Assembly: GCA_965219535.1 (NCBI GenBank)
Contig: CBDCNV010000002.1
Coordinates: 1,380,001 to 1,412,000 of the forward strand
DNA from: Opitutales bacterium
GTDB lineage: Bacteria; Verrucomicrobiota; Verrucomicrobiia; Opitutales; PNEW01
DNA length: 32,000 bases
Reading direction: 5' to 3'
Shown here in pieces: positions 589 through 30,383 of the stretch (the stretch's first letter is position 1; every line of letters begins with the position of its first letter). The notes beneath the pieces are model-generated. The model was not told where the DNA came from. It was given only the letters and a program-made list of their open reading frames with translations, and searched no databases. A program made the translations under genes and the position numbers.

Positions 589-603
589 GTTTTAAGTCAA
601 TTA

Positions 604-644
604 CCTAAAACCTAACACTTAACACCTAAAACGCGCGAAAGCGC
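604..644. repeat. (CTAAAAC/TTAACAC) heptamer array followed by the mini-hairpin GCGC-GAAA-GCGC
   Basis: CCTAAAACCTAACACTTAACACCTAAAAC + GCGCGAAAGCGC. On the minus strand this reads hairpin then GTTTTAGGTGTT..., 53 nt after the stop of 697..3567. Confidence 0.8.
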
Positions 645-652
645 TTCCCTCC

Positions 653-705
653 TTCGACTTTCGACCTTCGACTTTTGACACGCGCTGATGCGCGCTTCAG
701 CGCGC
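653..705. repeat. (TCGACTT)-type array plus two overlapping GC hairpins; the second carries the stop codon of 697..3567 in its loop
   Basis: TTCGACTTTCGACCTTCGACTTTTGACA, then CGCGC-TGAT-GCGCG and GCGCGC-TTCA-GCGCGC (TCA is the reverse complement of TGA). Confidence 0.8.
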
Positions 706-3567
706 GCCCCCTTCCGTCCGAATCCTAGGATCGAGCCACATGAGGAGAAGATCGCTGACGAGGGTACCGAGGACACCGACGAGGCTGAGGACCATGAGCA
801 TCGATCCGGCCAGGTACATATCCTGATTCATTAGAGCATCAAGCATCAGGGGGCCGACGGTGGGCAGACTCAGGACCATGGCGACGATTGCACCGCCGGA
901 AATAAGTTGGGGAAACAGGGTGCCAATCGCTGAGATGAAGGGATTGAGTGCGATGCGCACAGGATATTTTAAAAGTACATGAATCGGTCGCACTCCTTTT
1001 GCCATCGCGGTTACGACATAGGGTTTTTTTAATTCATCGAGCAGGTTGCCGCGCATCACACGGATCATGCTCGCGGTGCCAGTGACCCCGAGAACAACGA
1101 CTGGGAGCCAGATGTGTTGCATGAGGTCTGCCGCTTTGCCCCAACTCCATTCGGGACGCCCGGCGTATTCGGGTGAATATAAGCCCGTCATGCTGATGCC
1201 GAAATAGAGATTACTCCAATACATAAGCAAGAGCGCGAGGAGAAAACTGGGGACGCACATCCCGATAAATCCGAGGAAGGTGAAGAAGTAATCACCAATC
1301 GAGTATTGTCGCACGGCAGAGTAGACACCAATCGGCAGGGCGATCGCCCAGGTAAAGAGTATGGACCCCAACGAAATTAAAAAAGTAAGCAGGATGCGGT
1401 CACCGACAACTTCGTTTACCGATGTTCGGCTCTCCATGGAAAACCCCAGGTGACCCTGGAGCAGACCACGTTCTACAGACTTAAAGGAGAGAAACCAGGG
1501 AAGACCAAGCCAATTGACGTACTGCCTGAAAGTGGATACATCGGTGGGATAGATTTCCCGCAATTGCTCGGCTTCAATTTTCGCTTGATCGTCACCAGTA
1601 TACTCTGCCTGTAAAATTTTTAAATCTATATAATTTGATGGAGGTAACTGAATGATGGTAAAAGAAATGATCGAGATAAGAAGTAAAGTAGGCACCATAA
1701 TAATGAGACGTCTGCCTATATAGGGGTGTTTAAATCCCATGAGAATCAGTCCCACCGCGATGATACCTAATATAATGTGAAGGACAACCCGACCGAAAGA
1801 GTCATTCCCTTTTGTTTCAAAGGTGACTGCATCAAGTGTGTGGGACGGGGGTGTAATCTCGGTCATTTCCCTTTTTATTTGTGCGATAACCCCCGGTGAA
1901 TCGTCCGGTTCCTCGAAATAGTAAGCTTCAAGTCCACCACTGGCAATGCTCTCATAGGCACCCCCGTAAAGCGCGTTACGGGGCACGCTCTTAAATCCCT
2001 TCTTCACGATCGCTACCCAGGGTTGACCGGTCGTAATATTAATATTCCAGAGATTATCCACCGCGATATCCTGAATTTTACTGTAAATAGCCGTCTGTTC
2101 TTCAAGGGTTAGCGCGCTGAAAGCCTCATCGAGCAGCTCATTAGCGCGATTGGGATTGTACTCAATAAAACTGTTTTTGAGTTCTTCATGGTAAAAGGGC
2201 GATTCCACTCCCGGTGAACCCTGTGTGGGCACACCGACTCCATAGTAAACCGCATCGATGATCTGTTCTCGATTGATGGCGAGAGACAGCGCTTGCCGAA
2301 AGCGTTTATCCTTGAGCAATTCCCTTTTCGGTTTGGACATGGGATCATGGGGATTAATATTTTTATTAAGATTCGGTAAAATACCCCACATCCTAAAGCC
2401 GGATGGATACCAATGATAAACATCATACCCCCCCGCTTCCCGTTGAGACATAAATAGAGTGTAGTGTAAAAAATAGATATTAACGGCCTGCATCGTAATG
2501 GCTCCACTCGCCGCGGCGATGGGGACCAGTTTGGATGACTTTACATCTATAATAAAGCGGTCTACGTAAGGCAATTGATTGCCCTCGGTATCAACCGCCC
2601 AGTAGTAGGGATTGCGAACATAGGCTTGGGGTGGGTTGGACTTATAAGTGCGATATATCCAGGGCCAGATACGGGGATAGTCCGGATTGTTATTGAGTCT
2701 AAGGCTAACGTAGAGTGCTTTTCGCGTAGGTATTTTTTTGGCTTTCATCGTGGCATCGATTAGCTCTTCGTTGCCAAGCTCAGGGTGATACTTTTCCATG
2801 TAGTGACGGGGTGAATAAAAAGAATCTTCAAATGGCAGGCGTTCCAGAAATAATCCATGGGGATGGGAAAAAATAATCTTCACTGTGTAGGGGTCTATTT
2901 TTAGAATTTCACCGCTTTCTCCCTTCACTTTCATGGAATTTGGGAAGCGTGTTAATTTTTGTTTTACCTCATCGTTCCACCAGAAGAGAATATCATCAGC
3001 GGTAAATGGATGGCCGTCGGACCACTTCATCCCCTCGCGCAGGTAAAATATCCATTCTCTCTTGTCAGGCGAAACCTCCCAACGCTTAGCGATGTGAGGG
3101 ACAATGGGATCACCTAGAGGTGACCAGCGTACAAGGCTGGTTCCAGTCATATAATCATCAATACGGTTGACCGTAAATATAGTGTTAGTGATCATATTCC
3201 AGGTGCCGCCGTAATTGCCGAGGCCGTCCCTTCCCTGAATGACCACCGGCTCGGGTCCCACGCGCTCCGCGACCGGTGGCAGTTTTCCCTCTTCTACCAG
3301 TTCCGCCAGGATTGGAGACTCCCCTTTAGGGTACCAACTGCCGGATTCGCCCTCGCTGTAGTCTACGTCGTGTTGTACTTTGTATACATCTTCTTCACCG
3401 AAACTGATGTCTCTCAATTCCTCTGTCGCTTCGATATATTCAGGACTGTAATGAATCGGTTCGCGTTCCAGTTCAGGCTTCATCAACGCGCCCCAGAAAT
3501 AAGCAATACCGAATACACCGCAGCAGGTAAGGAGGAAAAGCCCGCAATATTTAAAAACACGTTTCAC
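697..3567 (-). CDS. Fused ABC-importer protein: N-terminal membrane anchor + family-5 (peptide/nickel/oligosaccharide-type) solute-binding domain + DppB/OppB-type permease. The binding domain carries an internal deletion relative to the paralog.
   Basis: 956-aa ORF. Anchor VFKYCGLFLLTCCGVFGIAYFW. SBP5-like region (YGGTWNM..., PYVDRFIIDV...). Permease N-terminal TM RRLIIMVPTLLLISIISFTIIQLPP and EAA-loop region KPYVVTAMAKGVRPIHVLLKYPVRIALNPFIS. GTG start with in-frame TAA TAA just upstream. Strongly similar to 11727..15002. Confidence 0.85.
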   Translation of the reverse strand: MKRVFKYCGLFLLTCCGVFGIAYFWGALMKPELEREPIHYSPEYIEATEELRDISFGEEDVYKVQHDVDYSEGESGSWYPKGESPILAELVEEGKLPPVAERVGPEPVVIQGRDGLGNYGGTWNMITNTIFTVNRIDDYMTGTSLVRWSPLGDPIVPHIAKRWEVSPDKREWIFYLREGMKWSDGHPFTADDILFWWNDEVKQKLTRFPNSMKVKGESGEILKIDPYTVKIIFSHPHGLFLERLPFEDSFYSPRHYMEKYHPELGNEELIDATMKAKKIPTRKALYVSLRLNNNPDYPRIWPWIYRTYKSNPPQAYVRNPYYWAVDTEGNQLPYVDRFIIDVKSSKLVPIAAASGAITMQAVNIYFLHYTLFMSQREAGGYDVYHWYPSGFRMWGILPNLNKNINPHDPMSKPKRELLKDKRFRQALSLAINREQIIDAVYYGVGVPTQGSPGVESPFYHEELKNSFIEYNPNRANELLDEAFSALTLEEQTAIYSKIQDIAVDNLWNINITTGQPWVAIVKKGFKSVPRNALYGGAYESIASGGLEAYYFEEPDDSPGVIAQIKREMTEITPPSHTLDAVTFETKGNDSFGRVVLHIILGIIAVGLILMGFKHPYIGRRLIIMVPTLLLISIISFTIIQLPPSNYIDLKILQAEYTGDDQAKIEAEQLREIYPTDVSTFRQYVNWLGLPWFLSFKSVERGLLQGHLGFSMESRTSVNEVVGDRILLTFLISLGSILFTWAIALPIGVYSAVRQYSIGDYFFTFLGFIGMCVPSFLLALLLMYWSNLYFGISMTGLYSPEYAGRPEWSWGKAADLMQHIWLPVVVLGVTGTASMIRVMRGNLLDELKKPYVVTAMAKGVRPIHVLLKYPVRIALNPFISAIGTLFPQLISGGAIVAMVLSLPTVGPLMLDALMNQDMYLAGSMLMVLSLVGVLGTLVSDLLLMWLDPRIRTEGGAR

Positions 3568-3576
3568 GTGTTATTA

Positions 3577-3610
3577 GTCAAAAGGTCAAAAGGTCAAAAT
3601 GTCAAAAAGG
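3577..3610. repeat. (GGTCAAAA)4 octamer array, 9 nt upstream (minus strand) of the GTG start of 697..3567
   Basis: GTCAAAAGGTCAAAAGGTCAAAATGTCAAAAAGG. Near-identical array at 15013-15044. Confidence 0.9.
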
Positions 3611-3746: not shown

Positions 3747-4649
3747 ATGAATGAGACATCGCCATTTGTAGACTGTACGGATATGATCGGGGATCGCGAT
3801 CGTCTCCTCGATCACGGTCGGAAGAATGGTTATTTCTATTTTCCCGGACTACTGCCTGTAGATCCTGTACTCGAGCTGCGTCGACACGTGCTCCGAGTAG
3901 CGGAAGAGCACGATCTCCTCGAACCGGGCACCGATCCCAATGACGGCATCCGCAGAAACGGGGTCTTCATTTACGAAGAGGATGGAACCGAGACCTTCAG
4001 ACGCTATTATATCGACATCCAAAAACTTAAACTATTTCACGAACTTCCCCATCACGAACGTATAGTAAGTGTGCTGGAAACACTTTTCGACGAACCCGTC
4101 TTTGTTCACCCCCGTCACATATTTCACATCGTCTTCCCCGGTGGGCATCAGTCTACTACACCACCGCATCAAGACTTTCATCCGGTTCGCGGCACGCGAA
4201 ATACATGGACCGTGTGGACACCGCTAGGCGATTGTGACCCCGAGTTGGGTGGTCTGGCGATCGCAAGGGGTTCTAACCGTTGGGGTTTCCTGAAAGACGA
4301 CGATGTCCGTTCAGGGAAGTTGTTTGAAAACGATACAGAATGGGCTTGGAACCCCTTCAAATGTAGCGATGTCCTCATGTTTCACAGCTTGTCGATTCAC
4401 CGCGGGCGCAACAATATGAGTGAAGACCGTATACGACTCGCGACGAGTGCACGCTACCAGCCGGTCTCCGAACCTATAGATGAAGCGGCTCTCAACGTAC
4501 ACATGAATTGGGCGAAATGGGAGCAAGTCTATTCTGAGTGGGAAGCAAACGATCCACTAAAATATTACTGGAAGTCTGTCGACCTCGATGTCCAACCCGC
4601 CCACCATCTCCGTAAATCAAAAAAAAAGAAAACCGCTGAACCCTCCTAA
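3747..4649 (+). CDS. Phytanoyl-CoA dioxygenase (PhyH)-family Fe(II)/2-oxoglutarate dioxygenase
   Basis: 300-aa ORF with an HxD motif (TTPPHQDFH), the distal His in LMFHSLSIHRG and a conserved Arg region (RIRLATSARYQ). Divergent from 697..3567. Confidence 0.85.
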   Translation: MNETSPFVDCTDMIGDRDRLLDHGRKNGYFYFPGLLPVDPVLELRRHVLRVAEEHDLLEPGTDPNDGIRRNGVFIYEEDGTETFRRYYIDIQKLKLFHELPHHERIVSVLETLFDEPVFVHPRHIFHIVFPGGHQSTTPPHQDFHPVRGTRNTWTVWTPLGDCDPELGGLAIARGSNRWGFLKDDDVRSGKLFENDTEWAWNPFKCSDVLMFHSLSIHRGRNNMSEDRIRLATSARYQPVSEPIDEAALNVHMNWAKWEQVYSEWEANDPLKYYWKSVDLDVQPAHHLRKSKKKKTAEPS

Positions 4650-4657: not shown

Positions 4658-4721
4658 GCTTGGCACGCCATAGTGAAACGACGGCGGCTAACACTTAAAA
4701 CTTAACACTCATGCGTGCATG
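4658..4721. repeat. Mosaic of a CCATAG...GACGG motif copy, a (TTAAAAC/TTAACAC) array and the small palindrome CATGCGTGCATG overlapping the start codon
   Basis: GCTTGGCACGCCATAGTGAAACGACGGCGGC + TAACACTTAAAACTTAACACTC + ATGCGTGCATG. Confidence 0.7.
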
Positions 4722-5765
4722 AAATTACTATCCGATAAAGTCATATATCAAGACGGTCGGCACAACGCCTTCACTTCGCTCGTGCCATGGAAGGGGAAAT
4801 ACTGGCTTACCTTCAGGAATGGGACACACCATAAGTCCGATGATGGACGGATTTATGTCATCAGCTCGCCTGACCTGGAAAATTGGTCTGAACCTCAGTC
4901 GCTTATTGATACAGACATCGACGATCGAGATCCGACCTTATATGTTTACGACGACCAGCTTTTTCTCATCAGTATGTCTTACGATCGCCAGTTGCATCCG
5001 GGAGAGAAAGAGCGCCGTCTTGCGAGTAAAAAAAGTTATCTTGTCCACAGTGTGGACGGTGTGACATGGACCGATCCCCAATTAGCTCTGCCGGAGAACC
5101 GTGTCATCTGGTGGGTAGCTAAAGGTCCCGACGCTAACTATGCTTCCGTTTATCACGTGGATACTGCTTTCGACGGTCCCGCGCGTTCATCATTATCAGA
5201 ATTGTGGCGGAGCGTCGATGGATTGCAGTGGGAAAAGGTTGGCGTCATTTCTGATGAACATAGGGCGACTGAAGTGGCCCTCGCTTTTTTGCCTGACAAT
5301 CGTCTGTTCGCTTTCATTCGGCACGACGCGCACGATAAGCCGGAGATTAAATATTCTTCGCCTCCGTATACCGATTGGACGACAGCCTACCAGTTTGATT
5401 TCAGACACAATGGACCTTGTATAGGGCTTGTCGGCGACAAGCTGGTAACTTCAAGCCGCGCGTTTTTTGTCGAAGATGAAAAGACACCGCTAGCGGACGA
5501 ACGTTGTCGGGAACGCAAGCGCGGTTTGATTATGGGGGTGTTTGATCCGAGCACCCTTCAATGGAAACCCGAAATGGCTATACCTCATTCCCGCGGGGTG
5601 AGGGGCCCAGACGATCCGGACTGTCATGAGGTACCAGACATGAACTGGCCGGATGTTTCCTACGCCTCCATCTTCGCACTAAGTGACACCCAATTTAAAA
5701 TGGCTTACTACGAAGGTTTCAAAGGTTGGCCCTCCGATATCCGACTCGCGACCTTCTCCTTTTAG
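4719..5765 (+). CDS. Asp-box (BNR-like) beta-propeller protein, sialidase-fold-like; function unknown; no signal peptide
   Basis: 348-aa ORF with three SxDxxxW-type Asp-boxes: SSPDLENWSEP, HSVDGVTWTDP, RSVDGLQWEKV. Confidence 0.6.
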   Translation: MKLLSDKVIYQDGRHNAFTSLVPWKGKYWLTFRNGTHHKSDDGRIYVISSPDLENWSEPQSLIDTDIDDRDPTLYVYDDQLFLISMSYDRQLHPGEKERRLASKKSYLVHSVDGVTWTDPQLALPENRVIWWVAKGPDANYASVYHVDTAFDGPARSSLSELWRSVDGLQWEKVGVISDEHRATEVALAFLPDNRLFAFIRHDAHDKPEIKYSSPPYTDWTTAYQFDFRHNGPCIGLVGDKLVTSSRAFFVEDEKTPLADERCRERKRGLIMGVFDPSTLQWKPEMAIPHSRGVRGPDDPDCHEVPDMNWPDVSYASIFALSDTQFKMAYYEGFKGWPSDIRLATFSF

Positions 5766-5772
5766 AGGAGGA

Positions 5773-5811
5773 GCGCTGACGCGCGTGTTAGGTGTTAAGT
5801 ATTAGGTTAAG
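5773..5811. repeat. GCGC-TGAC-GCGC mini-hairpin followed by a (GTGTTAG/GTGTTAA) array, 8 nt after the stop of 4719..5765
   Basis: GCGCTGACGCGC + GTGTTAGGTGTTAAGTATTAGGTTAAG. This is the terminator-like orientation on the + strand. Confidence 0.75.
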
Positions 5812-5926: not shown

Positions 5927-5987
5927 TAATCCACAATCCGCAATCGCAATTCGACTACCGAGCCCCGCAATCGCGTGGGCGACATCC
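5927..5987. repeat. (AATCCRC/AATCGCA) array followed by a copy of the TACCGAG-hairpin-CGACATC motif (long-stem variant)
   Basis: TAATCCACAATCCGCAATCGCAATTCG, then TACCGAG + GCCCCGC-AATC-GCG(T)GGGC + GACATCC. Confidence 0.75.
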
Positions 5988-6005: not shown

Positions 6006-6812
6006 TTACGATTTCAGGTTTTTGACCATACTTTGGATTCGCGGTCGCTTGCTCTTTAGAAAGGCTTCATGGGGATGGAATATATATGCGGTGTTTTCCT
6101 TAATTAAATTGATATGTTCATCTGTCATCGGCTTCGCCGCGAATTTCATGGCGATATATCTTCGCCTTTCACCCAGTCCCCCATAGACGGCATGGTATGC
6201 GTTCTGATGGAAAATGACAACATCTCCGGGATTGGATTCGATTGCATGGGAGGGAATGTCTGAACTCACCACACCGAATGGCAGACTTGAATGACCACTC
6301 GGATTACTCTCATCTAAACTCCTCAATCCTTCATATTTCATATGATACTGCATAAGCGGATTGAGAGAATCATGATAGGGTGAACGATGAGATCCGGGGA
6401 TGACGCGCAAGGCACCGGTCTCTTTCGTTGTCGGCTCGAGATAAAGGTGAACTTTAAGGCGCGTATAGGTATTCTGATTTTTACCTGGACGATCATTATG
6501 CCAGGTGGTGCTGATTCGCCCTATCTGGCCTTCCGATCCTGCCCAGATAAATTCCGGCCCGAGCAAGAGTTCAATGACATTATATATACGGTCGTCTTCA
6601 ACGAGCGAAGTTAACTTCGGGTGTTTTTCGAAAATCGCGGCTACAGCAGTAGCACCGCTGTATTCACCACCGCCCTCGGGTAACCCTTTTTCAACAGCCC
6701 AAATTTCCTCGGCTGCAACCGTGATTGTTTCCATCTCCATGGGTGAAAACACCTGTCGCAAAACGAGAAACCCGAACGTTTCGAAAAAAGCTAAATGTCC
6801 TGTTTTTACCAT
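6006..6812 (-). CDS. PhyH-family Fe(II)/2OG dioxygenase
   Basis: The ORF track gives 6006..6839 from a TTG. I prefer the ATG at 6812 (MVKTGHLAFFETFGFLVLRQVF, a typical PhyH N-terminus). HxD in TTWHNDRPG, GALRVIPGSH, distal His in VIFHQNAYHAV. Confidence 0.8.
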   Translation of the reverse strand: MVKTGHLAFFETFGFLVLRQVFSPMEMETITVAAEEIWAVEKGLPEGGGEYSGATAVAAIFEKHPKLTSLVEDDRIYNVIELLLGPEFIWAGSEGQIGRISTTWHNDRPGKNQNTYTRLKVHLYLEPTTKETGALRVIPGSHRSPYHDSLNPLMQYHMKYEGLRSLDESNPSGHSSLPFGVVSSDIPSHAIESNPGDVVIFHQNAYHAVYGGLGERRRYIAMKFAAKPMTDEHINLIKENTAYIFHPHEAFLKSKRPRIQSMVKNLKS

Positions 6813-6945
6813 CAATTTATATTGTGTGGGAATGCACAACTTCAGTCAATGGGCATGCGCTATGTTTTTGGTTAAGAAGGTTCCCTTCGACTACACTCAT
6901 GGCGGGCAGGATTATCTGGTCTTCAGGACATCCGGCTTTCTCTTT

Positions 6946-8054
6946 TTATTGTTGCGCTTCCAGTTCACCGCCTTCAAGTCCCAGTGGTAAAGGCGCAGGT
7001 CGCTCAATAGTGCTTTCAACATGAATGTATTTTCCGTTAGTGGAGGATTCAATGAGTGACTCCATCACATCAAGTACGTGGTAGGCTAATTCACCGTTAC
7101 AGCGGTTTTTTCGTTTTCCTCTTATCGCACAGGCCATGTCGGCAACTCCTATGATGCGCATTTGGTTGGTGTAACCATGAGAAAGGGGAACTGACTGCCA
7201 GCCTTCATCCCCGGGTTTATTAATGTAAACCGGGCCATCGAAAATATTCGGATCGGGAACTTTCATACTGCCTTCCTCTCCATGAATTTCTATAGGGTGG
7301 TTGCTATGATGCCATACATCAAAACTCATGATCAGTGTTATCAGGGCCCCACAGGTAAATTCAAGTGTTCCCGCAATATGAGTGGGAACATCGACGGGAA
7401 TTACTCTGATTGCTTGATCTTCACAAGTGGCAATCCGTTCTTTAAATGTAATGGCCGATAGTGCGCACACGCGTTTGACAGGTCCCAGCAGGTTTACGAG
7501 TGCGGTAATATAGTAAGGACCAAAATCGAATAATGGGCCCCCTCCTTTCTTATAAAGAAATTCAGGAATCGGACATTCGCTATCACTGTCTTGTTCCATA
7601 AAAATTGCAGTTCCCGATACCGCTTTCCCTATACACCCATCGTCTATCATCTTGCGGCAGGTTGAAGACCTCCACCGAGGAAAGTGTCAGGTGCACATCC
7701 TACCAGGAGCCGTTGCTTTTGCGCCAGGTTGATAACAGTCATCCCTTCTCTTCGTGTTAGAGCCAACGGCTTTTCACAATGGACATGCTTACCGGCATGC
7801 AATGCCTTTAAATTAACTTCGGTATGAGATTGTGGTGTTGTTAAGTTTAGGACGATTTCAACGTTGCTCGCTTTCAACAAACGCTCAACAGGTATGGCTT
7901 CGATTCCATGTTCTTTTGCCTTCTGTTTTGCCACCTCCTGCTTTATATCCGCGCAAGCAACGATTTGTATATTGGGAAATAATTTGGCAGCTTTCAGATA
8001 GATTTCGCTGATTTTCCCACAGCCAATGACACCTACATTTACTTTATTATTCAT
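6946..8054 (-). pseudogene. Gfo/Idh/MocA-family NAD(P)-dependent oxidoreductase split into N-terminal Rossmann (7647..8054) and C-terminal (6946..7650) ORFs by a 1-nt frame change at an ATGA stop/start overlap
   Basis: The N-terminal ORF has VGVIGCGKIS and the EKP motif and ends ...GGGLQPAAR*. The next ORF starts MIDDGCIGK..., which continues the canonical single-polypeptide sequence. Minus strand reads GCA AGA TGA / ATG ATA GAC. Confidence 0.7.
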
Positions 8055-8082: not shown

Positions 8083-8116
8083 GTCAAAAGGTCAAAAGGT
8101 CAAAAGGTCAAAATGG
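8083..8116. repeat. (GGTCAAAA)4 array, 28 nt upstream (minus strand) of the ATG of the Gfo/Idh/MocA gene
   Basis: GTCAAAAGGTCAAAAGGTCAAAAGGTCAAAATGG, preceded by the palindrome CCTGCA-T-TGCAGG at 8064-8076. Confidence 0.9.
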
Positions 8117-8166: not shown

Positions 8167-8185
8167 GCTTCAATCGACAATCGAC

Positions 8186-8275
8186 ATGGCCTTTTGACTC
8201 TATACAATCCGAAATCGTAAATTGATATGGCCTTTTGACTTTATACAATCGACAATCGCAAATCGCAAATTGATT
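8186..8275. repeat. Tandem duplication (41 + 49 bp units) ending at the start codon of 8276..9037
   Basis: ATGGCCTTTTGACTCTATACAATCCGAAATCGTAAATTGAT / ATGGCCTTTTGACTTTATACAATCGACAATCGCAAATCGCAAATTGATT. Confidence 0.85.
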
Positions 8276-9037: not shown

Positions 9038-9055
9038 GATTCAATCGGCATTCCA

Positions 9056-9113
9056 GTACCGAGAGCCCAGCCCTCCTGTCATCTATAGCCTTGTGCGACA
9101 GATGGACATCCCA
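9056..9113. repeat. GTACCGAG...GACATCCCA motif copy with an expanded insert containing the hairpin CTGTC...GACAG
   Basis: GTACCGAG AGCCCAGCCCTC CTGTC ATCTATAGCCTTGTGC GACAG ATG GACATCCCATATTTGAAA, 22 nt before the ATG at 9135. Confidence 0.65.
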
Positions 9114-9134
9114 TATTTGAAAATCCGCAATTAA

Positions 9135-20546: not shown

Positions 20547-20575
20547 TAATGCAGGGAAATATAGAAAATAAATTT

Positions 20576-20650: not shown

Positions 20651-20682
20651 CGCATTAGCGCTTCTCTGCGGTGCATGGAAGT

Positions 20683-20754: not shown

Positions 20755-20768
20755 ATATAAGGTAAAGA

Positions 20769-21638: not shown

Positions 21639-21644
21639 ACCGTA

Positions 21645-21675
21645 GGTAATAGGGTTCAGGGTTCGGGGTTCAGGG
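21645..21675. repeat. GGTAA + (GGGTTCR) array, G-rich on the + strand, 7 nt after the stop of 20769..21638
   Basis: GGTAATAGGGTTCAGGGTTCGGGGTTCAGGG: four G-runs. Confidence 0.85.
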
Positions 21676-21767
21676 AACAAGCGCTACCGCGTGTCAAAAG
21701 GTCAACAACCGTCGCCAAGGCTATGGCCGTCAAGAAAGGTCAAAATGAGAAGAATACAGTGAACAGT

Positions 21768-21820
21768 GGGGGAGTTGCAGATTTATTATAATAGTGCTAA
21801 CTATTCTTACCTGAACCCTG
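21768..21820. repeat. Dispersed roughly 55-bp unit (copy 2), interrupted at its CTGAACC end by the IS
   Basis: GGGGAGTTGCAGATTTATTATAATAGTGCTAACTATTCTTACCTGAACCCTG, then the IS left end. Confidence 0.85.
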
Positions 21821-23198: not shown

Positions 23199-23411
23199 CC
23201 GATACCTATACTCGATACCGATACCTCTAACCTAAAACTTAACCCGCGCTCCAGCGCTCTTTCACTGTTTACTGTTCACTGTTTACTGATTTCCCCCCGA
23301 CACCTGACACCGGACAACCAGAAGGCCGGCGGGCTGGAAGAGTTCAGGGTAGAAAATATGTCCACACAAGAATAGTATTCTCCTTCAACCGTGAACGGTG
23401 AACCTTGAACC
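23199..23411. repeat. Mosaic spacer: GATACC array, TAAAAC array, GCGC-TCCA-GCGC hairpin, inverted GTGAACA array, GACACC array, CCGGAAGG-type module, GTGAACG array
   Basis: 23199-23225, 23227-23243, 23246-23257, 23263-23288, 23298-23316, 23318-23340 and 23387-23411, all read directly. Confidence 0.8.
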
Positions 23412-23446
23412 TTTGTTCCCTGTGCGCAGCGAAGAAAACAGCTTAT

Positions 23447-24328: not shown

Positions 24329-24378
24329 GATTTGTATATTAGAAGGATGAACTTATGAGAAAGTAAACAGTAATCAGT

Positions 24379-24646
24379 AAGGAAGTATTGGATGGGTGGA
24401 TGATTGGAAGGTTGGAGTATTGAAGAATGAGAGATTAAACAATAGAAGATATTAAATATGAGGGTATCAGGTGTCGGTGGTGAATGAAAAGTGACTTGGG
24501 TTAGTTTAGACAATCCTTAAGATTCATGGGCTTTACTTTTGGACATTTTGAAGTACGCTAGCCTTTGTCCCTGACACCCGACACCTGCCCTGAGCACTGG
24601 CAAAGGGAATTTTTAACCTTGAACATTGAACGGTGAACGGTGAACC
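24379..24646. repeat. Mosaic spacer: ATTGGAAG-type array, inverted pair of GACACC arrays, CCTGCCCTGAGC motif, GTGAACG/TTGAACA array
   Basis: 24379-24433; 24465-24482 (reverse complement) versus 24570-24589; 24615-24646. Confidence 0.8.
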
Positions 24647-24656
24647 TTATTCAAAA

Positions 24657-26000
24657 ATGAGTATCACTGAACTGCACGCCAAAGCTGCCCGCTTGGAGCG
24701 GGAGTTGCAGGAGACGCGTGAGCTTCTTGCGCGGAAGACTCATGACTCGGAGGCGGTCACGGCCGAACTTAGGCGCACGCGGGCTTATGCGTTCGACGCT
24801 GCCGCGCTGCCGCTTGAGGAGGTGGTTGCGGGTTGTGCCGATTCGCTCGAGCGTTACGGGTTCTGCGTCGTCGACCATGTGATACCACCCGATGAGGTGG
24901 ATGCGATACGCGAGGAAGCGGAGGCGGCGCATGCCACCATTGAACGCAATAAACAGGGCATCAAGGATCTGTTTGAAAAAGAGGGGGCGAACGCCGAGGA
25001 TTTACTCAACGGTAAGGCTGCGGCAAACGGCGTGGAGTTAAGGCGGGTGCGCCGCATCGGACACCCCCCGAAAGCTCCGAACGACATTATCTGGATGCCG
25101 CAGTACGCCCAACATTTGGCTAACCCGGTCATCACCGCCCTCGCAAGCCACGTCCTCGATGACCACCTTCGAATCGCGCAGCTACATATGCGTTTCATCG
25201 AGACCGACAAAGCCGACGGCACCCCGGGTGGGTTCAACATCGGTGATTACAAGAACAAGGGCCGTGCCGACACCCGTGAATGGCACACCGACTGGCCCCA
25301 TGACCTTTCAGCTTACGGCAATAAAGACCCCTACCATAATGTAGGCTGCATCCGCCAGCCCTTCCCCGACGTGCCGATGTGCCTGGTTATGATCTGGTAT
25401 TTAACCGACACTGATGAAAACTCGGGTGGAACCTGGGTTGTTCCCGGATCGCATAAGGACGAACGGAACCCACGGGGACCGGCCGACAATATAAATATCG
25501 CCGCCCCCATTCCCGGTGACATTCAAGTGACGGCTCCGGCGGGGTCGGTCTATATTCAGGACTCGCGCAGTTGGCATTCGTCCACGATGCATAATCCGAG
25601 CGGACGGGCGAGGATCGCGATCGTAAACCGCTGGGCCCCCTGGTGGTTGTCCGTCGATGACTTCGCCCCCGGAGATACGTACAATCTCAACACGATATGT
25701 ATGCCACTGACGCACGCAGAGTATCTCGCCCTACCCTCTAACCTTCAACCCTTGATGCGGCATCTCTGCCCCGATGAGCATGACACCTTGCAGCAACCAG
25801 TCCTCGATCGAGCCGCCGCCGCTCGTTTACGCGCGACTGTAGGATTTAAGCAACTGGATGAAGATCCAGAGTCGTTGAAACATGCCAACGCACACATTCG
25901 TGTGCCGTTGGACCTGAAAACCAGAGGACCGGAAAGCCTGAAAGCCGGAGGACCGGAGAGCCTGAAGACTAGAAAGCCGGAGAACCAGAAGGTTAGTTAG
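24657..26000 (+). CDS. PhyH-family Fe(II)/2OG dioxygenase with an N-terminal coiled-coil-like extension and a repeat-encoded C-terminal tail
   Basis: The ORF track starts at a GTG (24633) inside a GTGAACG array. I prefer the ATG at 24657 (MSITELHAKAARLERELQETRELL). REWHTDWPHD (HxD), GGTWVVPGSHKDE, SRSWHSS. The tail DLKTRGPESLKAGGPESLKTRKPENQKVS is a translated repeat module. Confidence 0.8.
   Translation: MSITELHAKAARLERELQETRELLARKTHDSEAVTAELRRTRAYAFDAAALPLEEVVAGCADSLERYGFCVVDHVIPPDEVDAIREEAEAAHATIERNKQGIKDLFEKEGANAEDLLNGKAAANGVELRRVRRIGHPPKAPNDIIWMPQYAQHLANPVITALASHVLDDHLRIAQLHMRFIETDKADGTPGGFNIGDYKNKGRADTREWHTDWPHDLSAYGNKDPYHNVGCIRQPFPDVPMCLVMIWYLTDTDENSGGTWVVPGSHKDERNPRGPADNINIAAPIPGDIQVTAPAGSVYIQDSRSWHSSTMHNPSGRARIAIVNRWAPWWLSVDDFAPGDTYNLNTICMPLTHAEYLALPSNLQPLMRHLCPDEHDTLQQPVLDRAAAARLRATVGFKQLDEDPESLKHANAHIRVPLDLKTRGPESLKAGGPESLKTRKPENQKVS
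25911..25993. repeat. CCGGARAGCCTGAA-type array lying inside the 3' end of CDS 24657..26000
   Basis: GACCTGAAAACCAGAGGACCGGAAAGCCTGAAAGCCGGAGGACCGGAGAGCCTGAAGACTAGAAAGCCGGAGAACCAGAAGG. Same family as 11477-11544. Confidence 0.8.
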
Positions 26001-26024
26001 CAGGATAACTGGTTCCGTTAGCTA

Positions 26025-26087
26025 CATCCTGTATCCTTCATCTTGCAACCTGAACCCTGTACCGAGGGCGTAGCCCGACATCTTCCA
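26025..26087. repeat. (ATCCTGT/ATCCTTC/ATCTTGC) heptamers, a CTGAACC unit and the hairpin motif GTACCGAG-GGC-GTA-GCC-CGACATCTTCCA
   Basis: Stem 26066-26069/26073-26076. Confidence 0.8.
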
Positions 26088-26277
26088 CCCCGAACCCTGC
26101 TGAATTCGGTTGACCTCCGTTGATCTATTACCCAAAATTCCAGTCACGCTCTTCAGGAAGCTATCGGTCCCGCGTAAAGGGCTATGCCCGTCTGAATAAA
26201 ATTTAATGAATCGACAGTGATAAACTCTATTGCTGTCTGTTCGCGGGTCGCAGACGCAATGCAATGGAGATTATACA

Positions 26278-28320
26278 ATGTCGGAATCAGACCCTGCTCT
26301 TCACGATTTAGAGCAACTCAAGAAGCAGGCCAAGTGCCTGCTCAAAGCCGCTCGTTCGGGCGATCCCAAAGCAACCAGTCGCTTCGCAATATACGGTTTC
26401 TCAAACCAGAAAGAAGCTGAATACAAACTCGCCAATGCCCAGCTAATCATCGCTCGCGACAGGGGCTTCGACAGTTGGAGAAAACTACGCAGCTACATTG
26501 AAAAAAGTATCGCCGATGTTTTCTTCGCTGCCCTTGCGGAAGGCAAACTGCGCAAATTCAAGCTGCTCCTCAAAGAGTACCCAGCTCTTAAGGGAGCCCG
26601 CGAAAAGAAAAGTAAGCTGCTCCCTGTCCAGATCGCCTTACAACAGGGAAATCACGAGTTGACCCGCTTCTTATTCGCCCTCGAAGAACCCATGAGTAAA
26701 TCCAAGTATCAATACTTGGAAAACGGACCCATGCACGATATCTGGAGTATGGTGAACGCTGCTTATACGGGAGATCTTCCCACTATTACCTCACTCATAA
26801 AGCGATCGCCTCAATTAGTGAACAGTCACTATGACTATGTGTGCCCTCTTCATTTAGCGGTCATCAACGGGCACGATGACGTCGCGCAATATCTTATCGC
26901 TCAGGGGGCCGACATAAGCAGCGATAACTACTGGTTTAAAGACTCGCTCGTCACCACTACGACGGACCGTCAGTCAACGCACATGCGTGAGATAATTATC
27001 GAAGCGCTAAAAAAACGCTTCCAATACTACGCGCCAGGACCTCATGCGATACTCGATGCGGTAAAAGGGGACGATCAGATCACCGTAGAACGCATACTCA
27101 CAGCTACACCCGACGAGGTTAACGTCTGTGATGAAACAGGTAATACGCCCCTGCACCTCGCGGTCATGAATCTGAACACGGAACTCGTCCAATGCCTCAT
27201 CGAGCATGGGGCCGATCCCAATGCGATTAACAAAGTCGGATTCAAGCCCATCCACTACGCGTTTTACAAAAATAACTTCTGGCTTAAAGAAAACAAAGGC
27301 CTTCCACTTGCTGAGTACTTGCGAGACAACGGAACGGAGTACAACATCCATCTCGCCACTCTCTTCGGCGATCTGAATGGGGTTCAGGCCTTTCTTTCGA
27401 AGGACCCCTCACTCAGTAACTTCCATGACAGCTGCGACAAGCGTCCGCTTTCTTCCGCGGCGGCAGTAGGCAACGCAGCGATGGTGAAAATCCTCCTGGA
27501 AAATGGAGCCGATCCGATGGGACCGGAAAGTAATTCTCCGAACGGTCACGCGCTATGGATTGCCGCATATAAAAATTATCCGGCCATTGTCGAAATGCTA
27601 CTCAATGCCGGGGCCGATCCACACAGTATGGTTCACGCTTGTGGATCAGCTTTTACCGCAGGAAAGGATCATCCGGAAGTATTCGAGATCTTTAAACGTT
27701 TTACCGAGACGCCTATTGATCCGGATCCTGAGGAAGAAAAAGGTCTCGATCCCGTAGTGGGAGCAATACTTGATAATAATCTCGAAAAAGTACGGCAATA
27801 TCTCGATGAAAACCCAGCGCTTGCCACTAATAATGAAGCCTTCTATGGTGAAGGTTATCTCGCAATCGCCGCGAATCGCAATTTTACCGAGATCATTGAC
27901 CTCCTTATTGAACGCGGCGCAACGACACCCGATCAATCCAACTGGGGACCCGAATATAGTTTCAAGCATCTCGACCTCGCTCGGAGATTCCTTGAAAATG
28001 GAGCGAACCCGAATCACTGCAACTGGCTCAAGCGTACTATTCTCCATTTTTTCGCTTACCATGGCGACCTGGATAAAGTGAACCTCCTCCTGGAGTTCGG
28101 CGCAGAGATTGACCCCATCGATATGGAATACCAATCCACACCACTTGGCTTCGCCGCGAGAGGTGGACAAGTCGAAGTCGTTAAACGCCTGCTCGAAGTC
28201 GGTGCTGATCCCAATCTTCCCGAGCACCCACTCTGGGCAAAGCCGCTAGCCTGGGCGAAGGCTAGGAACCACCAGGAGGTAGTGGAGATATTGGAGGGGA
28301 GAGTGAACAGTGAACGGTAA
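26278..28320 (+). CDS. Ankyrin-repeat protein (about 680 aa, many ANK repeats); no signal peptide
   Basis: The ATG at 26278 is preceded by GGAG. Repeated ANK consensus: TPLHLAVMNLNTELVQCLIEHGADPN, RPLSSAAAVGNAAMVKILLENGADP, TPLGFAARGGQVEVVKRLLEVGADPN. Confidence 0.85.
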   Translation: MSESDPALHDLEQLKKQAKCLLKAARSGDPKATSRFAIYGFSNQKEAEYKLANAQLIIARDRGFDSWRKLRSYIEKSIADVFFAALAEGKLRKFKLLLKEYPALKGAREKKSKLLPVQIALQQGNHELTRFLFALEEPMSKSKYQYLENGPMHDIWSMVNAAYTGDLPTITSLIKRSPQLVNSHYDYVCPLHLAVINGHDDVAQYLIAQGADISSDNYWFKDSLVTTTTDRQSTHMREIIIEALKKRFQYYAPGPHAILDAVKGDDQITVERILTATPDEVNVCDETGNTPLHLAVMNLNTELVQCLIEHGADPNAINKVGFKPIHYAFYKNNFWLKENKGLPLAEYLRDNGTEYNIHLATLFGDLNGVQAFLSKDPSLSNFHDSCDKRPLSSAAAVGNAAMVKILLENGADPMGPESNSPNGHALWIAAYKNYPAIVEMLLNAGADPHSMVHACGSAFTAGKDHPEVFEIFKRFTETPIDPDPEEEKGLDPVVGAILDNNLEKVRQYLDENPALATNNEAFYGEGYLAIAANRNFTEIIDLLIERGATTPDQSNWGPEYSFKHLDLARRFLENGANPNHCNWLKRTILHFFAYHGDLDKVNLLLEFGAEIDPIDMEYQSTPLGFAARGGQVEVVKRLLEVGADPNLPEHPLWAKPLAWAKARNHQEVVEILEGRVNSER

Positions 28321-28385
28321 ACAGTGAACAGTGGGGGAAACCGTAGGCAAATTATGAATTAGGAATTAAGAATTATGAATTAGGG
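28303..28385. repeat. (GTGAACA) array containing the stop of the ankyrin gene, then a (GAATTAT/GAATTAG/GAATTAA) array
   Basis: GTGAACAGTGAACGGTAAACAGTGAACAGTGGGGG, then AAATTATGAATTAGGAATTAAGAATTATGAATTAGGG. Confidence 0.85.
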
Positions 28386-28528
28386 TGGAACGTGTTGCCT
28401 GACCGCCATAGCCTTGGCGACGGTTGTTCCCTACCGCGTTAATATTAAGTATTAAAAAAAGAAGCGCGCTAGGGAACAGCCGTCGCTGTGAAATGTTAGG
28501 CTATGGCCGTCAGGCAGCCCGCTCCACC
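28384..28528. repeat. Imperfect palindrome of about 145 bp (arms about 50-60 nt) built from two inverted copies of the CTGACSGCCATAGCC...CGACGGYTGTTCCC motif
   Basis: Left arm GGTGGAACGTGTTGCCTGACCGCCATAGCCTTGGCGACGGTTGTTCCCTA. The right arm in reverse complement is GGTGGAGCGGGCTGCCTGACGGCCATAGCCTAACATTTCACAGCGACGGCTGTTCCCTA. The centre is A/T-rich. Related single copies lie at 21701-21734 and 4658-4689. Confidence 0.8.
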
Positions 28529-28590
28529 TCTCACCTAACGCCAAAAAATTAAAACGCGCGTCAGTGCTTTTTCACTGTTTACTGATCCCC

Positions 28591-28625
28591 CTCGACACCC
28601 GACACTCGACACCTGACACTCGACC
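28591..28625. repeat. (CGACACC/CGACACT/TGACACT) heptamer array, 5 nt upstream of the sulfatase ATG
   Basis: CTCGACACCCGACACTCGACACCTGACACTCGACC. Confidence 0.85.
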
Positions 28626-28630
28626 TGAAA

Positions 28631-30073: not shown

Positions 30074-30093
30074 ATTTATGATGCTGTAAAGGT

Positions 30094-30149
30094 GCTGCCC
30101 GCCCTGAGCTCGATGATATCCCTGAGCTCGTCGAAGGGTCGAAGGTAAG
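30094..30149. repeat. CCCTGAGC...GTCGAAGGG motif with an internal duplication
   Basis: GCTGCCCGCCCTGAGCTCGATGATATCCCTGAGCTCGTCGAAGGGTCGAAGGTAAGC. Same family as 16271-16303, 16400-16432, 6879-6910 (reverse complement) and 24585-24608. Confidence 0.75.
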
Positions 30150-30173
30150 CAAGCCATTCATGTATCTTTCTTT

Positions 30174-30333
30174 CTGATATCCGACGTTTGATATTTGATG
30201 TTTGATGTTTGAAGTGCTTTAATTACATCGCATATCAAATATCGGATATCGTACCGAGGACGAAGTCCGACGTCTTCCAAATCGTATATCTTTCCCACCG
30301 AACCGTTGAACCGTGAACTGTGAACGGTGAACC
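30174..30333. repeat. Inverted pair of (TTGATRT) arrays, the hairpin motif GTACCGAG-GAC-GAA-GTC-CGACGTCTTCCA, and a GTGAACG array
   Basis: 30174-30214 versus 30231-30251 (reverse complement). Stem 30258-30261/30265-30268. Array 30300-30333. Confidence 0.8.
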
Positions 30334-30383
30334 CTCAAATTTCGATTGCAGAAAAGGGAAGTGTTATCAATCTGGAAAACACG

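Follow-up and report, generated by a model that had tools for sequence, protein, structure and literature searches.

Intergenic arrays of tandem heptanucleotides have been known since the work of 1990 on short tandemly repeated repetitive (STRR) sequences and the 2007 survey of long simple sequence repeats (LSSRs), and their origin, spread and function are unexplained. An extreme case is described here from an Opitutales bacterium (assembly GCA_965219535.1, contig CBDCNV010000002.1, positions 1,380,001 to 1,412,000). In this stretch of 32,000 nucleotides, called the window and analysed at its full length, about one fifth of the intergenic DNA is tandem repeat and the spacers between genes are mosaics of shared repeat modules. 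The class of heptamer arrays itself is known; the polarity of the arrays relative to gene boundaries and their coupling to hairpins at start and stop codons are new.

The STRR sequences and small dispersed repeats of cyanobacteria (the system of Elhai et al. 2008) reportedly comprise many tandem heptamers at many intergenic loci, and are said to coexist with 21-27-nt mobile hairpin-like elements, which are nested in other repeats and in miniature inverted-repeat transposable elements (MITEs), and with many insertion sequence (IS) elements. The window likewise contained tandem heptanucleotides dispersed over many loci, but it belongs to another phylum, its units are others and 8-nt units are prominent among them; we know of no polarity rule described for STRR sequences. 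Tandem dimers of STRR1 CCCCAGT, STRR2 TTGGTCA and STRR3 CAACAGT were absent from the window, and TAACTGA, GGGAATC, GGGGATT and the TTTTGAT heptads of ctx were rejected as identities for its arrays, none of them being found there in tandem. Bacterial interspersed mosaic elements (BIMEs) are extragenic mosaics of short modules in defined combinations, situated at gene ends, and are hotspots of IS insertion and rearrangement. Repetitive extragenic palindromic (REP) units and their hairpin-forming doublets (REPINs) in proteobacteria are hairpin units present as extragenic singlets and inverted doublets (PMC3116915). Defined module combinations, location at gene ends and IS insertion are common to these systems and the window, which also has hairpin singlets and doublets that may be comparable, whereas REPs are palindromes of 20-40 nt and the window arrays are tandem units of 7-8 nt that are not palindromic. 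REPs are also defined by GTAG and by association with REP-associated tyrosine transposases (RAYTs), while a ~26-nt element of the window is at most REP-like.

The excess of heptamers among LSSRs was first noted by Mrazek, Guo and Shah in 2007, and two later papers that summarise it (PMC4679880, PMC4692102) treat LSSRs as a descriptive class with no known mechanism, for which polymerase slippage has been proposed. As depicted there, LSSRs resemble the window arrays in having tandem units of 5-11 nt, mostly heptamers, that are intergenic, phylogenetically sporadic and length-variable between relatives. Opitutales are not among the genomes described, and no report of LSSRs was found in these papers with the shared library, composite grammar, boundary polarity and hairpin coupling of the window's clade. 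A preliminary description of the window, made from the sequence and its open reading frames (ORFs), had been unable to name a known family; the heptamer-rich LSSR class does offer a descriptive name, while its mechanism is indeed not known. In marine Beggiatoaceae, TAACTGA repeats of 2-6 copies lie within a few nucleotides upstream of start codons lacking a Shine-Dalgarno sequence, are patchily distributed across phyla and have no known mechanism (PMC4679880). They represent one heptamer in forward orientation at 5' ends, whereas the window displays more than 25 units, at both gene ends, with its F1 family (defined below) antisense at 5' ends and sense at 3' ends. The GGGAATC and GGGGAYT repeats of Xanthomonas and Nostoc form intergenic G-quadruplex heptamer arrays, sometimes in inverted pairs, that differ in length among closely related strains or species (PMC4692102). 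Motifs of G-quadruplex type, defined by at least four G3+ runs joined by short loops, were also predicted for (GGGTTCA)n in the window (19468-19494, 19626-19649 on the minus strand and 21652-21675), but only this family could form them and the dominant GTCAAAAG family cannot. In Borg tandem repeats (PMC9879509), the units are of ~18-21 nt in the examples given, virtually all unique and about half of them in ORFs; they are comparable with those of the window in being pervasive, fast-evolving, restricted to one genome type and, between genes, mostly not multiples of three, but the window units are of 7-8 nt and reused at many loci. The window arrays also differ from CRISPR, in which unique spacers lie between direct repeats of 24-48 nt and are of similar length to them, in having periods of 6-16 nt repeated head to tail without spacers. 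In full-text literature searches, neither these unit sequences nor comparable repeats in Opitutales were found described.

Tandem Repeats Finder (TRF) returned 54 rows for the window and 51 on a re-run (26 of period 7, 9 of period 14 representing two heptamers each, 9 of period 8 and a few others), period 7 being dominant, followed by 8. On a gene map built from ORFs and Pfam matches, arrays accounted for 871 of 4211 intergenic nucleotides (20.7%) and for 244 of 27789 coding nucleotides (0.88%). This agreed with the preliminary view that the units are non-coding in period and location, within the limit that some arrays run into the 3' ends of ORFs. Tandem units of 1-11 nt exceeded chance, with 41 arrays in the concatenated spacers against a mean of 0.54 and a maximum of 3 in 50 dinucleotide-preserving shuffles. 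More than 25 distinct units were present in the 32 kb, in low copy numbers (2-6 units). Units of 5-11 nt were concentrated in non-coding DNA in the window and likewise in its relatives.

Modules were widely shared among spacers. By BLAST, 17 of the 19 spacers longer than 60 nt had modules in common with another spacer of the window or with one from a distant relative; 9038-9134 and 24329-24632 had none. Such matches covered 39% of spacer bases, and 31% of spacer bases matched 17 kb of spacers from the relatives OY829953 and CBDANS; shuffled and coding controls gave 0% in the first comparison and controls likewise 0% in the second. The preliminary claim that spacers are mosaics from a common library of 7-8-nt tandem modules was thus borne out by TRF, by sharing and by BLAST. 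It had counted the 19 spacers correctly, but its extension to every one of them was too strong, because TRF arrays were present in 15 of the 19 and ~60% of spacer DNA was not shared. The spacers without a TRF array were 6840-6945, 9038-9134, 11490-11726 and 26001-26229, and all of these except 9038-9134, which had none, still shared degenerate or non-tandem modules with other spacers. Each interval assigned earlier to a family contained the unit in the orientation given (1 to 9 units at no more than one mismatch); the sole and trivial deviation was 8171-8189, assigned to AATCGCA and actually (CAATCGA)2. The CCGGAAGG-like and ATTGGAAG-like units were present where reported, but they formed loose families.

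A scan for (GTCAAAAG)x3 over one genome per species gave 72 loci, of which 13 were 8-kb blocks of the complete 4.49-Mb chromosome of an Opitutales metagenome-assembled genome (MAG), OY829953.1, and 2 came from the Opitutales MAG CBDANS010000007.1. The window was distinct from both but related to them (ABC gene 66-72% identical, many spacer modules in common). Closer sequences were an ENA contig (L073), ~87-91% identical in nucleotides and syntenic with 15223-21675, and three JGI metagenome contigs (L083-L085) with genes 82-94% identical in a partly rearranged order. Units and composite grammar were as in the window in six independent assemblies of relatives, and the clade sequence underlying the comparisons amounted to ~0.2 Mb. 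The earlier guess of a heterotroph of the Planctomycetes-Verrucomicrobia-Chlamydiae (PVC) group was confirmed, the relatives being Opitutales of the Verrucomicrobiota, within that group. In the window, L073, OY829953 and CBDANS, 15-21% of the intergenic sequence was tandem repeat. The share fell to 0.7% in L074 and L075, and L077, L079 and L081 had almost no arrays of 6-9 nt; each of these five sequences carried a homologue of window gene 16505-17953 at 77-84% identity. The repeat system is specific to the window's clade.

The preliminary description had allowed for an assembly artefact. The arrays are not assembly artefacts, because the families occur in independent ENA, JGI and NCBI assemblies. 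More broadly, an origin by misassembly, scaffolding or chance low-complexity sequence has practically negligible probability: the general difficulty of assembling repeats would be its only argument, whereas families and composites were found in assemblies from all three sources, including the single 4.49-Mb chromosome OY829953.1, orthologous arrays of the window and L073 aligned in register, and shuffled spacers gave 0.5 arrays where 41 were observed.

A first regularity concerned the F1 arrays, i.e., arrays with GTCRAAR units. In the window, L073, OY829953 and CBDANS they were separated from an ORF boundary by 0-25 nt. Those of the window were the following.

653-680, minus strand: F1 array of GTCRAAR units (GTCGAAAG as read on that strand), pointing outward at the 3' end of gene 697-3567
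3577-3610, plus strand: F1 array (GTCAAAAG)x4, outward, 10 nt off the GTG start of gene 697-3567 (minus strand)
8083-8116, plus strand: F1 array (GTCAAAAG)x4 of perfect copies, 29 nt off the start of gene 7647-8054 (minus strand)
15013-15044, plus strand: F1 array beside the ABC paralogue 11727-15017 (minus strand), at its start
16104-16120, plus strand: F1 array of 2 units that follows the GC palindrome GATGCGCATC and lies within ORF 15119-16150, at its 3' end
17961-17990, plus strand: F1 array (GTCGAAG/GTCAAAG)x4 abutting a stop-codon palindrome
20521-20546, plus strand: F1 array at the 5' end of the WelO5-like gene, kept in 5 genomes with 2 to 3.5 units
21693-21747, plus strand: two short F1 remnants with a ~25-nt small element (21707-21731) between them
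30130-30145, plus strand: F1-type array (GTCGAAGG)x2, from TRF

The 5'-GTCAAAAG-3' strand pointed outward from the nearest gene in 68 of 71 F1 arrays detected by TRF (37 at 5' ends and 31 at 3' ends), and a count by regular expression that included L083-L085 gave 59 outward and 1 inward (36:1 at 5' ends, 23:0 at 3' ends); the window's own F1 arrays obeyed the same rule. Polarity was not an artefact of ORF calling, because inward arrays would still have been counted and only 2 F1 arrays lay inside ORFs. A bias toward one replication strand was rejected, the F1 arrays of OY829953 being 30 on the plus and 24 on the minus strand, and the 6:1 strand ratio of the window stemmed from the gene side on which its arrays sit. 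Since no absolute strand bias exists in OY829953, array orientation is set by the gene boundary and not by the direction of transcription or replication. Orientation is therefore not free, as the preliminary description had it, but strictly polar relative to the nearest gene boundary.

The rule extended to other families, with G exceeding C on the outward strand in 65 non-F1 arrays against 22 (p = 4e-6). At 5' and 3' ends alike, the GC skew of the first 80 nt of spacers, taken in the outward direction, was +0.14 to +0.23, compared with +0.10 at 5' ends and -0.03 at 3' ends in control genomes. As a result of the outward polarity of F1, 12 of 48 F1-bearing spacers were bracketed by inverted arrays (plus to minus), and the opposite arrangement was found in none. 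Gene 4719-5765 had an F3 array at its 5' boundary in the window and an F1 array there in L085, with equal polarity. A general rule that the inward strand carries stops in every reading frame was considered and rejected (51 of 66 F1 arrays; 31 inward against 25 outward in other families).

A strict polarity that is independent of gene direction fits a reading at the DNA level, in which heptads and octads would be cooperative sites for a regulator or a nucleoid protein. Models would be ToxR/H-NS at the TTTTGAT heptads of V. cholerae ctx, SARP heptamers, IHF in BIMEs or gene-protecting orientation signals of Chi type, and heptad arrays are already known as binding sites (10.1101/2021.05.14.444153, PMC5930380). 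The diversity of more than 25 different units in 32 kb, the substitution of one family for another at one site, the presence of arrays at 3' ends as often as at 5' ends, and the differences in copy number and presence between close relatives make protein binding a very unlikely explanation.

The second regularity was the association of F1 arrays with hairpins. A perfect stem of at least 6 bp was present within the 40 nt on the gene side of 29 of 71 F1 arrays (p = 1e-11); distally, 3 of the 71 had such a stem, and the rate among random 40-mers was 6%. The hairpin ended exactly where the array started in 15 of these 29 coupled arrays, and the gap was of 0-2 nt in 20. Within 3 nt, 20 hairpins abutted the 5' end of the GTCAAAAG strand and a single one its 3' end (background 1.9%); independent cases are somewhat fewer, because some 5' examples come from paralogous or orthologous genes. 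Of 28 F1-coupled hairpins, 24 overlapped an ORF end, at the start or the stop codon. Examples are TATGACCCATGGGGTCATA, AGTGAATCCATGGATTCACT and, in the window, AGAGCGCTTAAGCGCTCT at 17943-17960 and CGCGCTGA..TCAGCGCG at 681-704.

632-645, minus strand: GC hairpin AGCGCTTTCGCGCG, joining F1 and F3 in a conserved composite
681-704, unstranded: GC palindrome CGCGCTGA..TCAGCGCG, containing the stop codon of gene 697-3567 and abutting an F1 array
3556-3572, unstranded: hairpin AACACGTTTCACGTGTT, containing the GTG start of gene 697-3567 and abutting F1
17943-17960, unstranded: palindrome AGAGCGCTTAAGCGCTCT centred on the TAA stop of gene 16505-17953, abutting F1
19657-19672, minus strand: GC hairpin right after the stop of the WelO5-like gene, with an F2 array next

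Among boundaries with F1, 20% of those at 5' ends and 36% of those at 3' ends were spanned by a hairpin; the corresponding rates were 3% and 7% where F1 was missing and 3% and 6% in control genomes. Because boundaries without F1 had hairpin rates at the control level, the hairpin and the F1 array form one unit; a clade-wide excess of boundary palindromes regardless of arrays, such as a template-switch mutator would leave, was rejected on the same rates.

Hairpins followed by arrays at gene edges raise the alternative of a functional punctuation of gene boundaries in RNA. Read outward, hairpin plus array would form transcript 3' ends or insulators, comparable with the 3'-stabilising REPs and BIMEs; the inward strand would give G-poor, unstructured leaders lacking a Shine-Dalgarno sequence (ribosome standby or S1 sites), with the start codon in the loop of a hairpin. 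Hairpins with a T-run, i.e., candidate terminators, were not enriched (22 vs 20.9 expected, and 21 vs 17.3) and were nearly absent at 3' ends. GC hairpins with a T-run within 0-2 nt, the form of an intrinsic terminator, were no more frequent than in shuffles; GTCAAAAG or GT-rich arrays come next to the hairpins instead. Many stop codons were directly followed by a GC hairpin and then by an array, and the gap of 0-2 nt in 20 of 29 cases is the geometry of an intrinsic terminator, both of which speak for the RNA alternative. On the 5' side, it is consistent with the lack of a Shine-Dalgarno sequence at most start codons of the window, with arrays ending 3-30 nt before the start codon, with the F1 array kept at the WelO5-like start in five genomes and with the replacement of F3 by F1 under unchanged polarity. 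A similar role has been proposed for TAACTGA repeats (PMC4679880).

Folding of the spacers was in part favorable to this alternative. In some of them, mainly convergent ones, inverted arrays closed a stem that spanned the spacer (z = -6.8, -5.9, -9.2 and -5.4), the very low energy of spacer 28321-28630 (z = -9.2) being due to an inverted pair of the second small element described below. Such values of -5 to -9 in several convergent spacers fit a role in RNA, whereas 12 of 17 window spacers had z > -3 and were no more structured than shuffles. The GTCAAAAG strand, moreover, was as strictly sense at 3' ends (23:0) as it was antisense at 5' ends (36:1), arrays were absent or reduced at some orthologous boundaries, and turnover was fast, none of which punctuation in RNA predicts; the tract after the hairpin was A-rich (GUCAAAAG) and not U-rich. 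On balance, we regard a primary function in RNA as doubtful. Two related ideas were discarded, namely that inverted arrays close each spacer into a single large hairpin (observed in only 5 of 17 window spacers and 12 of 48 F1 spacers) and that the arrays flanking a gene pair with each other through its 5' and 3' untranslated regions (family match at about 2 of 8 genes by eye). Matches resembling sigma-70 promoters were in modest excess (38 vs 23).

The library was not limited to the tandem modules that the preliminary description had recognised: in addition to these it included GC hairpins, elements of ~26 nt and ~29 nt, a MITE-like inverted doublet of ~130 nt and composites. The GC hairpins were of the type AGCGC(N3-5)GCGCG. 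One composite, E1, had the general form (CAGTGAA)n-GGGGAG-TTGCGGATTTATTATAATAGTGCTA.CTATTCTTA-(CCTGAAC)n and started at 16144, 19552 and 21756. A second, (GTCAAAAG)n-GGRGAGA-AGCGC(N3-5)GCGCG-(TGTTAGG/TTTTAGG)n, was shared by the window (632-696) and OY829953 (L004, L015, L047), with its parts arranged and oriented identically. The ~26-nt element, TACCGAG-(4-bp stem, 3-nt loop)-GACATCYTCC, had covarying stems (GAGC/GCTC, GGGC/GCCC, GGAC/GTCC), was often located inside heptamer arrays, and occurred as singlets and, with covarying stems, as inverted doublets within the ~130-nt element (also in L015). Together with its presence or absence at orthologous sites, this makes it a candidate tiny mobile element of REP/REPIN or small-dispersed-repeat type. 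A second small element, CCGTCGCC..GCTATGGCCGTC, was inserted into (CAGTGAA)n and F3 arrays in relatives. The arrays themselves had no MITE structure of terminal inverted repeats and target-site duplications; terminal inverted repeats were found only in the element at 18048-18175, whose counterpart in OY829953 carried the ~26-nt element in both arms in a REPIN-like manner. The composites and small elements, together with the F2 and F3 arrays to which they are joined, were located as follows.

16144-16211, plus strand: E1, first copy, (CAGTGAA)n-GGGGAG-TTGCGGATTTATTATAATAGTGCTAGCTATTCTTA-(CCTGAAC)2, a direct repeat of 19552-19650
19552-19616, plus strand: E1, second copy, 66% identical, running on into an F2 array
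21756-21820, plus strand: E1, third copy, 94% identical to the first, with an IS inserted right after its CCTGAACCCTG
16304-16332, plus strand: small hairpin element GTACCGAG-GAGC/GTA/GCTC-GACATCTTCCA
26059-26087, plus strand: small hairpin element with stem GGGC/GCCC and CCTGAAC units on its flanks
30251-30279, plus strand: small hairpin element with stem GGAC/GTCC
11551-11579, plus strand: small hairpin element of a long-stem subfamily (GTTCCGC..GCGGAAC)
15189-15217 and 18077-18102: further sites of the ~26-nt element, found also in L084 (about 4475-4510), L016, L033 and L037
18048-18175, unstranded: MITE-like element of 128 nt with terminal inverted repeats TTGTCATCGCGAGG / CCTCGCAATGACAA, carrying the ~26-nt element at 18077-18102
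21707-21731, 28401-28426 (reverse complement) and 28477-28514: second small element, found also in L085 (about 6740-6770) and in the 3' flank of WelO5 in L084/L085
19606-19650, plus strand: F2 array (CCTGAAC)x6.4, with 3.4 units in L073, a clean 21-nt difference
19466-19497, minus strand: inverted F2 array (GGGTTCA on the plus strand), pairing with 19606-19650 and closing the spacer; G-quadruplex-type motif
21645-21675, minus strand: inverted F2 array (GGGTTCA)x3.6, 3' of the stop of gene 20769-21638; G-quadruplex-type motif
603-632, plus strand: F3 array (CCTAAAA/CTTAACA), adjoining the GC hairpin 632-645
4689-4710, plus strand: F3 array 10 nt upstream of gene 4719-5765, with an F1 array there in L085
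5785-5811, minus strand: inverted F3 array (GTGTTAGG), right after the GC hairpin 5772-5785 at the stop of gene 4719-5765
16436-16465, plus strand: F3 array with a hairpin (16459-16486), upstream of gene 16505-17953, kept in L073
20619-20650, plus strand: F3 array with the degenerate GC hairpin ACGCATTAGCGCT

Comparison of orthologous spacers, as the preliminary description had recommended, showed copy numbers changing by whole units and modules replaced, inserted or absent. Spacer 19465-19672 was ~97% identical to that of L073 except for whole-unit changes ((CCTGAAC) 6.4 vs 3.4, and one more unit of (GGGTTCA)), and arrays of the two genomes were in register in orthologous alignments. The F1 array at the start of the WelO5-like gene was kept in five genomes with 2 to 3.5 units, while the ABC gene start had an F1 array of 4 units in the window but single units in L085. 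In L083, one proto-unit occupied the place of a (CGGTTCA) array of L073, which represents amplification in situ. A lone proto-unit in one relative can stand opposite 3-4 units in another. Larger changes affected whole spacers, the contents of which were exchanged between genomes with ~88%-identical flanking genes; the spacer between the bla and WelO5 genes, for instance, had an F1-linker-GC hairpin-F3 architecture in L083 versus an E1/F2 architecture in the window and L073. The ~26-nt element split (GGTTCAC)n in L084 and L085 and was absent at that site in the window, L073 and L083, and the second small element split a (CAGTGAA)n array in L085. The two-gene block 16505-19464, bounded by direct copies of E1+(CCTGAAC)n, was missing in L085, where a single spacer (6591-6900) was colinear with the predicted recombinant of 16144-16211 and 19552-19650. 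Arrays are, judging from these alignments, born and resized locally, and modules are exchanged and mediate gene gain or loss. Island gene order also varied among relatives, with breakpoints in mosaic spacers.

Whole-unit differences between relatives at arrays just upstream of start codons would also be expected of contingency loci, i.e., repeats causing phase variation or tuning expression through promoter spacing or leader length. Expression is tuned by 7-bp promoter repeats at hmw of H. influenzae and at ctx. This explanation is nevertheless highly improbable, since arrays were located in nearly every spacer, including 3' ends and convergent spacers, next to ordinary catabolic enzymes and not surface antigens, and in low copy numbers (2-6 units).

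We rank first, with a probability of about 55%, a semi-selfish system of mosaic extragenic repeats that is specific to an uncultured marine clade of Opitutales type and driven by slippage and module exchange. On the best reading, such a system would resemble STRR/LSSR arrays combined with BIME/REP-like elements. Modules would persist as semi-selfish DNA, and replication slippage would make and resize the arrays. Dispersed modules would move by recombination or by a hairpin-directed, strand-specific insertion process acting on single strands, analogous to that of REP/RAYT, of IS200/IS605-type elements or of class C group II introns, which target terminator hairpins. If only insertions on the non-coding side of a boundary hairpin survived, outward polarity would result at both gene ends, as we propose. 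Roles at gene ends (hairpin-plus-tail 3' ends; G-poor unstructured leaders) would be a secondary co-option.

Several points weigh against the ranking of this semi-selfish system. No perfect stem of at least 6 bp was present at 42 of 71 F1 arrays, and hairpin targeting can therefore account for only part of them; alternatively, arrays and hairpins might arise, or be selected, jointly. In the sequence covered no enzyme that would mobilise the modules was identified, the sole transposase seen being that of an IS481-family element, and no RAYT (Y1 HUH transposase) gene was found among the window genes on the ORF and Pfam map. Some arrays were kept at one boundary in five genomes, and conserved arrays, together with family replacement under unchanged polarity, could reflect function and not selfish turnover. 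ORF boundaries were taken from a simple longest-ORF caller, and the OY829953 loci were selected for carrying F1 arrays, so that densities there are biased, while polarity is unaffected.

A more radical proposal is that the boundary hairpin with its outward array is the footprint of unrecognised DNA-level machinery that writes templated repeats by reiterative copying. An enzyme of HUH/Y1 type, of reverse-transcriptase or telomerase-like type, or of PrimPol-like type would nick or prime 3' of the hairpin at the gene edge; the G-rich strand would then extend 5' to 3' away from the gene on both sides, as in telomeres, and fold-back synthesis would yield, as by-products, the palindromes that have a start or stop codon at their centre. 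We consider this unlikely; if true, the clade would expose the long-sought generator of bacterial heptamer repeats.

Any mechanism has to satisfy two hard constraints, a near-absolute boundary polarity that ignores gene direction and the coupling of F1 to hairpins. With several close relatives for before/after comparison and one complete chromosome, the generator could be hunted in this clade. The modules drive genome plasticity, as displayed by spacer replacement and by the module-bounded indel of two genes, and rearrangement driven by them bears on the flexible catabolic islands of marine Verrucomicrobiota.

Arrays of (GTCAAAAG)n were also found at loci in MAGs or genomes of Segatella/Prevotella, Deinococcales, Planctomycetales and Bacteroidia. 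A polarity like that of F1 was rejected for these other phyla (26:17 outward:inward), and because the polarity rule is missing there they are probably independent cases of a general phenomenon. In the Deinococcales MAG, (GTCAAAAG)n lay between a stop codon and a normal terminator. Mosaic short-repeat spacers may be more widespread than the literature indicates, as these loci suggest. Octamer (GTCAAAAG)n loci were observed at L056 4800-5330 (Segatella copri), L054 7180-7270 (Planctomycetales MAG) and L062 2330-2400 (Deinococcales MAG), that of S. copri being part of a large inverted mosaic with several 6-9-nt repeat families around an AT-rich core. On OY829953.1, exact (GTCAAAAG)x3 blocks were unevenly distributed, 11 of 13 lying at 2.08-2.13 Mb or 3.73-4.37 Mb, which hints at a concentration of arrays in particular, possibly flexible, regions.

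The remaining arrays and the IS copies of the window are listed below.

15065-15093, plus strand: (CAGTGAA/CGGTAAA) array, with GGGGAG next
16131-16160, plus strand: (CAGTGAA) array encoding the last codons and stop (VNSER*) of ORF 15119-16150
23261-23288, minus strand: inverted (CAGTGAA) array (CACTGTT on the plus strand)
23382-23413, plus strand: (CGTGAAC/CTTGAAC) array
24615-24646, plus strand: (TTGAACA/GTGAACG) array at the 5' end of gene 24633-26000
28302-28337, plus strand: (CAGTGAA) array encoding VNSER* of ORF 26230-28320
30300-30333, plus strand: (CGTGAAC) array upstream of the SDR gene
16218-16250, plus strand: (GAATTAK) array, copy 1 of a 101-nt composite
16348-16381, plus strand: (GAATTAK) array, copy 2 of the duplicated composite
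28349-28385, plus strand: (GAATTAK) array of 5 units
28591-28628, plus strand: (CGACACC/TGACACT) array that stops 3 nt short of the sulfatase ATG
23298-23316, plus strand: (YGACACC) array
24570-24589, plus strand: (YGACACC) array
5927-5953, plus strand: (AATCCGC/AATCGCA) array
8171-8272, plus strand: (CAATCGA)/(AATCGCA) arrays in a 41-nt repeat of 2.3 copies, upstream of the likely start of gene 8222-9037 at about 8276
15157-15189, plus strand: (AAATCCG) array upstream of a PhyH gene, kept in L085 and L073
30174-30214, plus strand: (TTTGATR) array
11477-11544, plus strand: loose CCRGAARG-type repeats, forming a spacer-spanning stem with 11677-11720 (z = -5.9)
11677-11720, minus strand: inverted CCRGAARG-type repeats, the other arm of the stem with 11477-11544
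25911-25993, plus strand: CCGGARRG-type repeats of 16/24-nt periodicity encoding the C-terminal tail of ORF 24633-26000
20576-20595, plus strand: (GGAACTCA)x2.5, with 3 units in L073
23199-23225, plus strand: (CGATAC) array adjoining the right end of the IS
24362-24433, plus strand: (AGTAAAC) and degenerate (ATTGGATG)-type arrays
21820-23195, plus strand: complete IS481-family insertion sequence, transposase 21907-23097
1-588, plus strand: second IS copy, truncated at the window edge to its 3' part and identical to the complete copy over 588 nt

IS copies 92-94% identical to that of the window were present in OY829953.1. The two copies of the 101-nt composite (16203-16303 and 16332-16432) were 88% identical, with a start-to-start spacing of 129 nt.

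The window encoded six PhyH-type dioxygenases, a WelO5-like protein and two paralogous fused SBP_bac_5-permease genes, as well as a sulfatase, a beta-lactamase-fold protein, an ankyrin protein, an SDR, GFO/IDH/MocA and xylose-isomerase-like proteins and the IS481-family transposase, as identified from ORFs and Pfam matches. Seven PhyH/WelO5-type Fe(II)/2-oxoglutarate oxygenase genes were thus located in 32 kb, and nearly every neighbouring gene pair was set apart by a spacer of 100-350 nt. The Rfam search suggested earlier returned 0 matches in the window (Rfam 15, gathering score), which also held 0 tRNAs.

About 240 array bases fell within predicted ORF ends (16104-16150, 28302-28320, 25911-25993, 15013-15017, 8246-8272 and 24633-24646), and such leakage matters for the annotation of these genomes. 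Located in the 3' ends of ORFs, arrays can therefore supply C-terminal residues and stop codons. Two unrelated ORFs shared the end VNSER*, encoded in both by (CAGTGAA)n, and the 16/24-nt repeats gave ORF 24633-26000 a periodic C-terminal tail (GPESLK..). The true start of gene 8222-9037 is probably at about 8276, and that of gene 11727-15017 probably near 15002, because the TTG start predicted at 15017 lies within an F1 array. The latter gene and its paralogue 697-3567 (1096 and 956 aa, ~73% nucleotide identity) each encoded SBP_bac_5 and BPD_transp_1 fused in one polypeptide, and a solute-binding/permease fusion in a single polypeptide is an unusual architecture for an ABC importer. Just upstream of PhyH gene 20769-21638, a perfect 36-bp tandem duplication (20683-20754) was present, of which L073 harbored a single copy.

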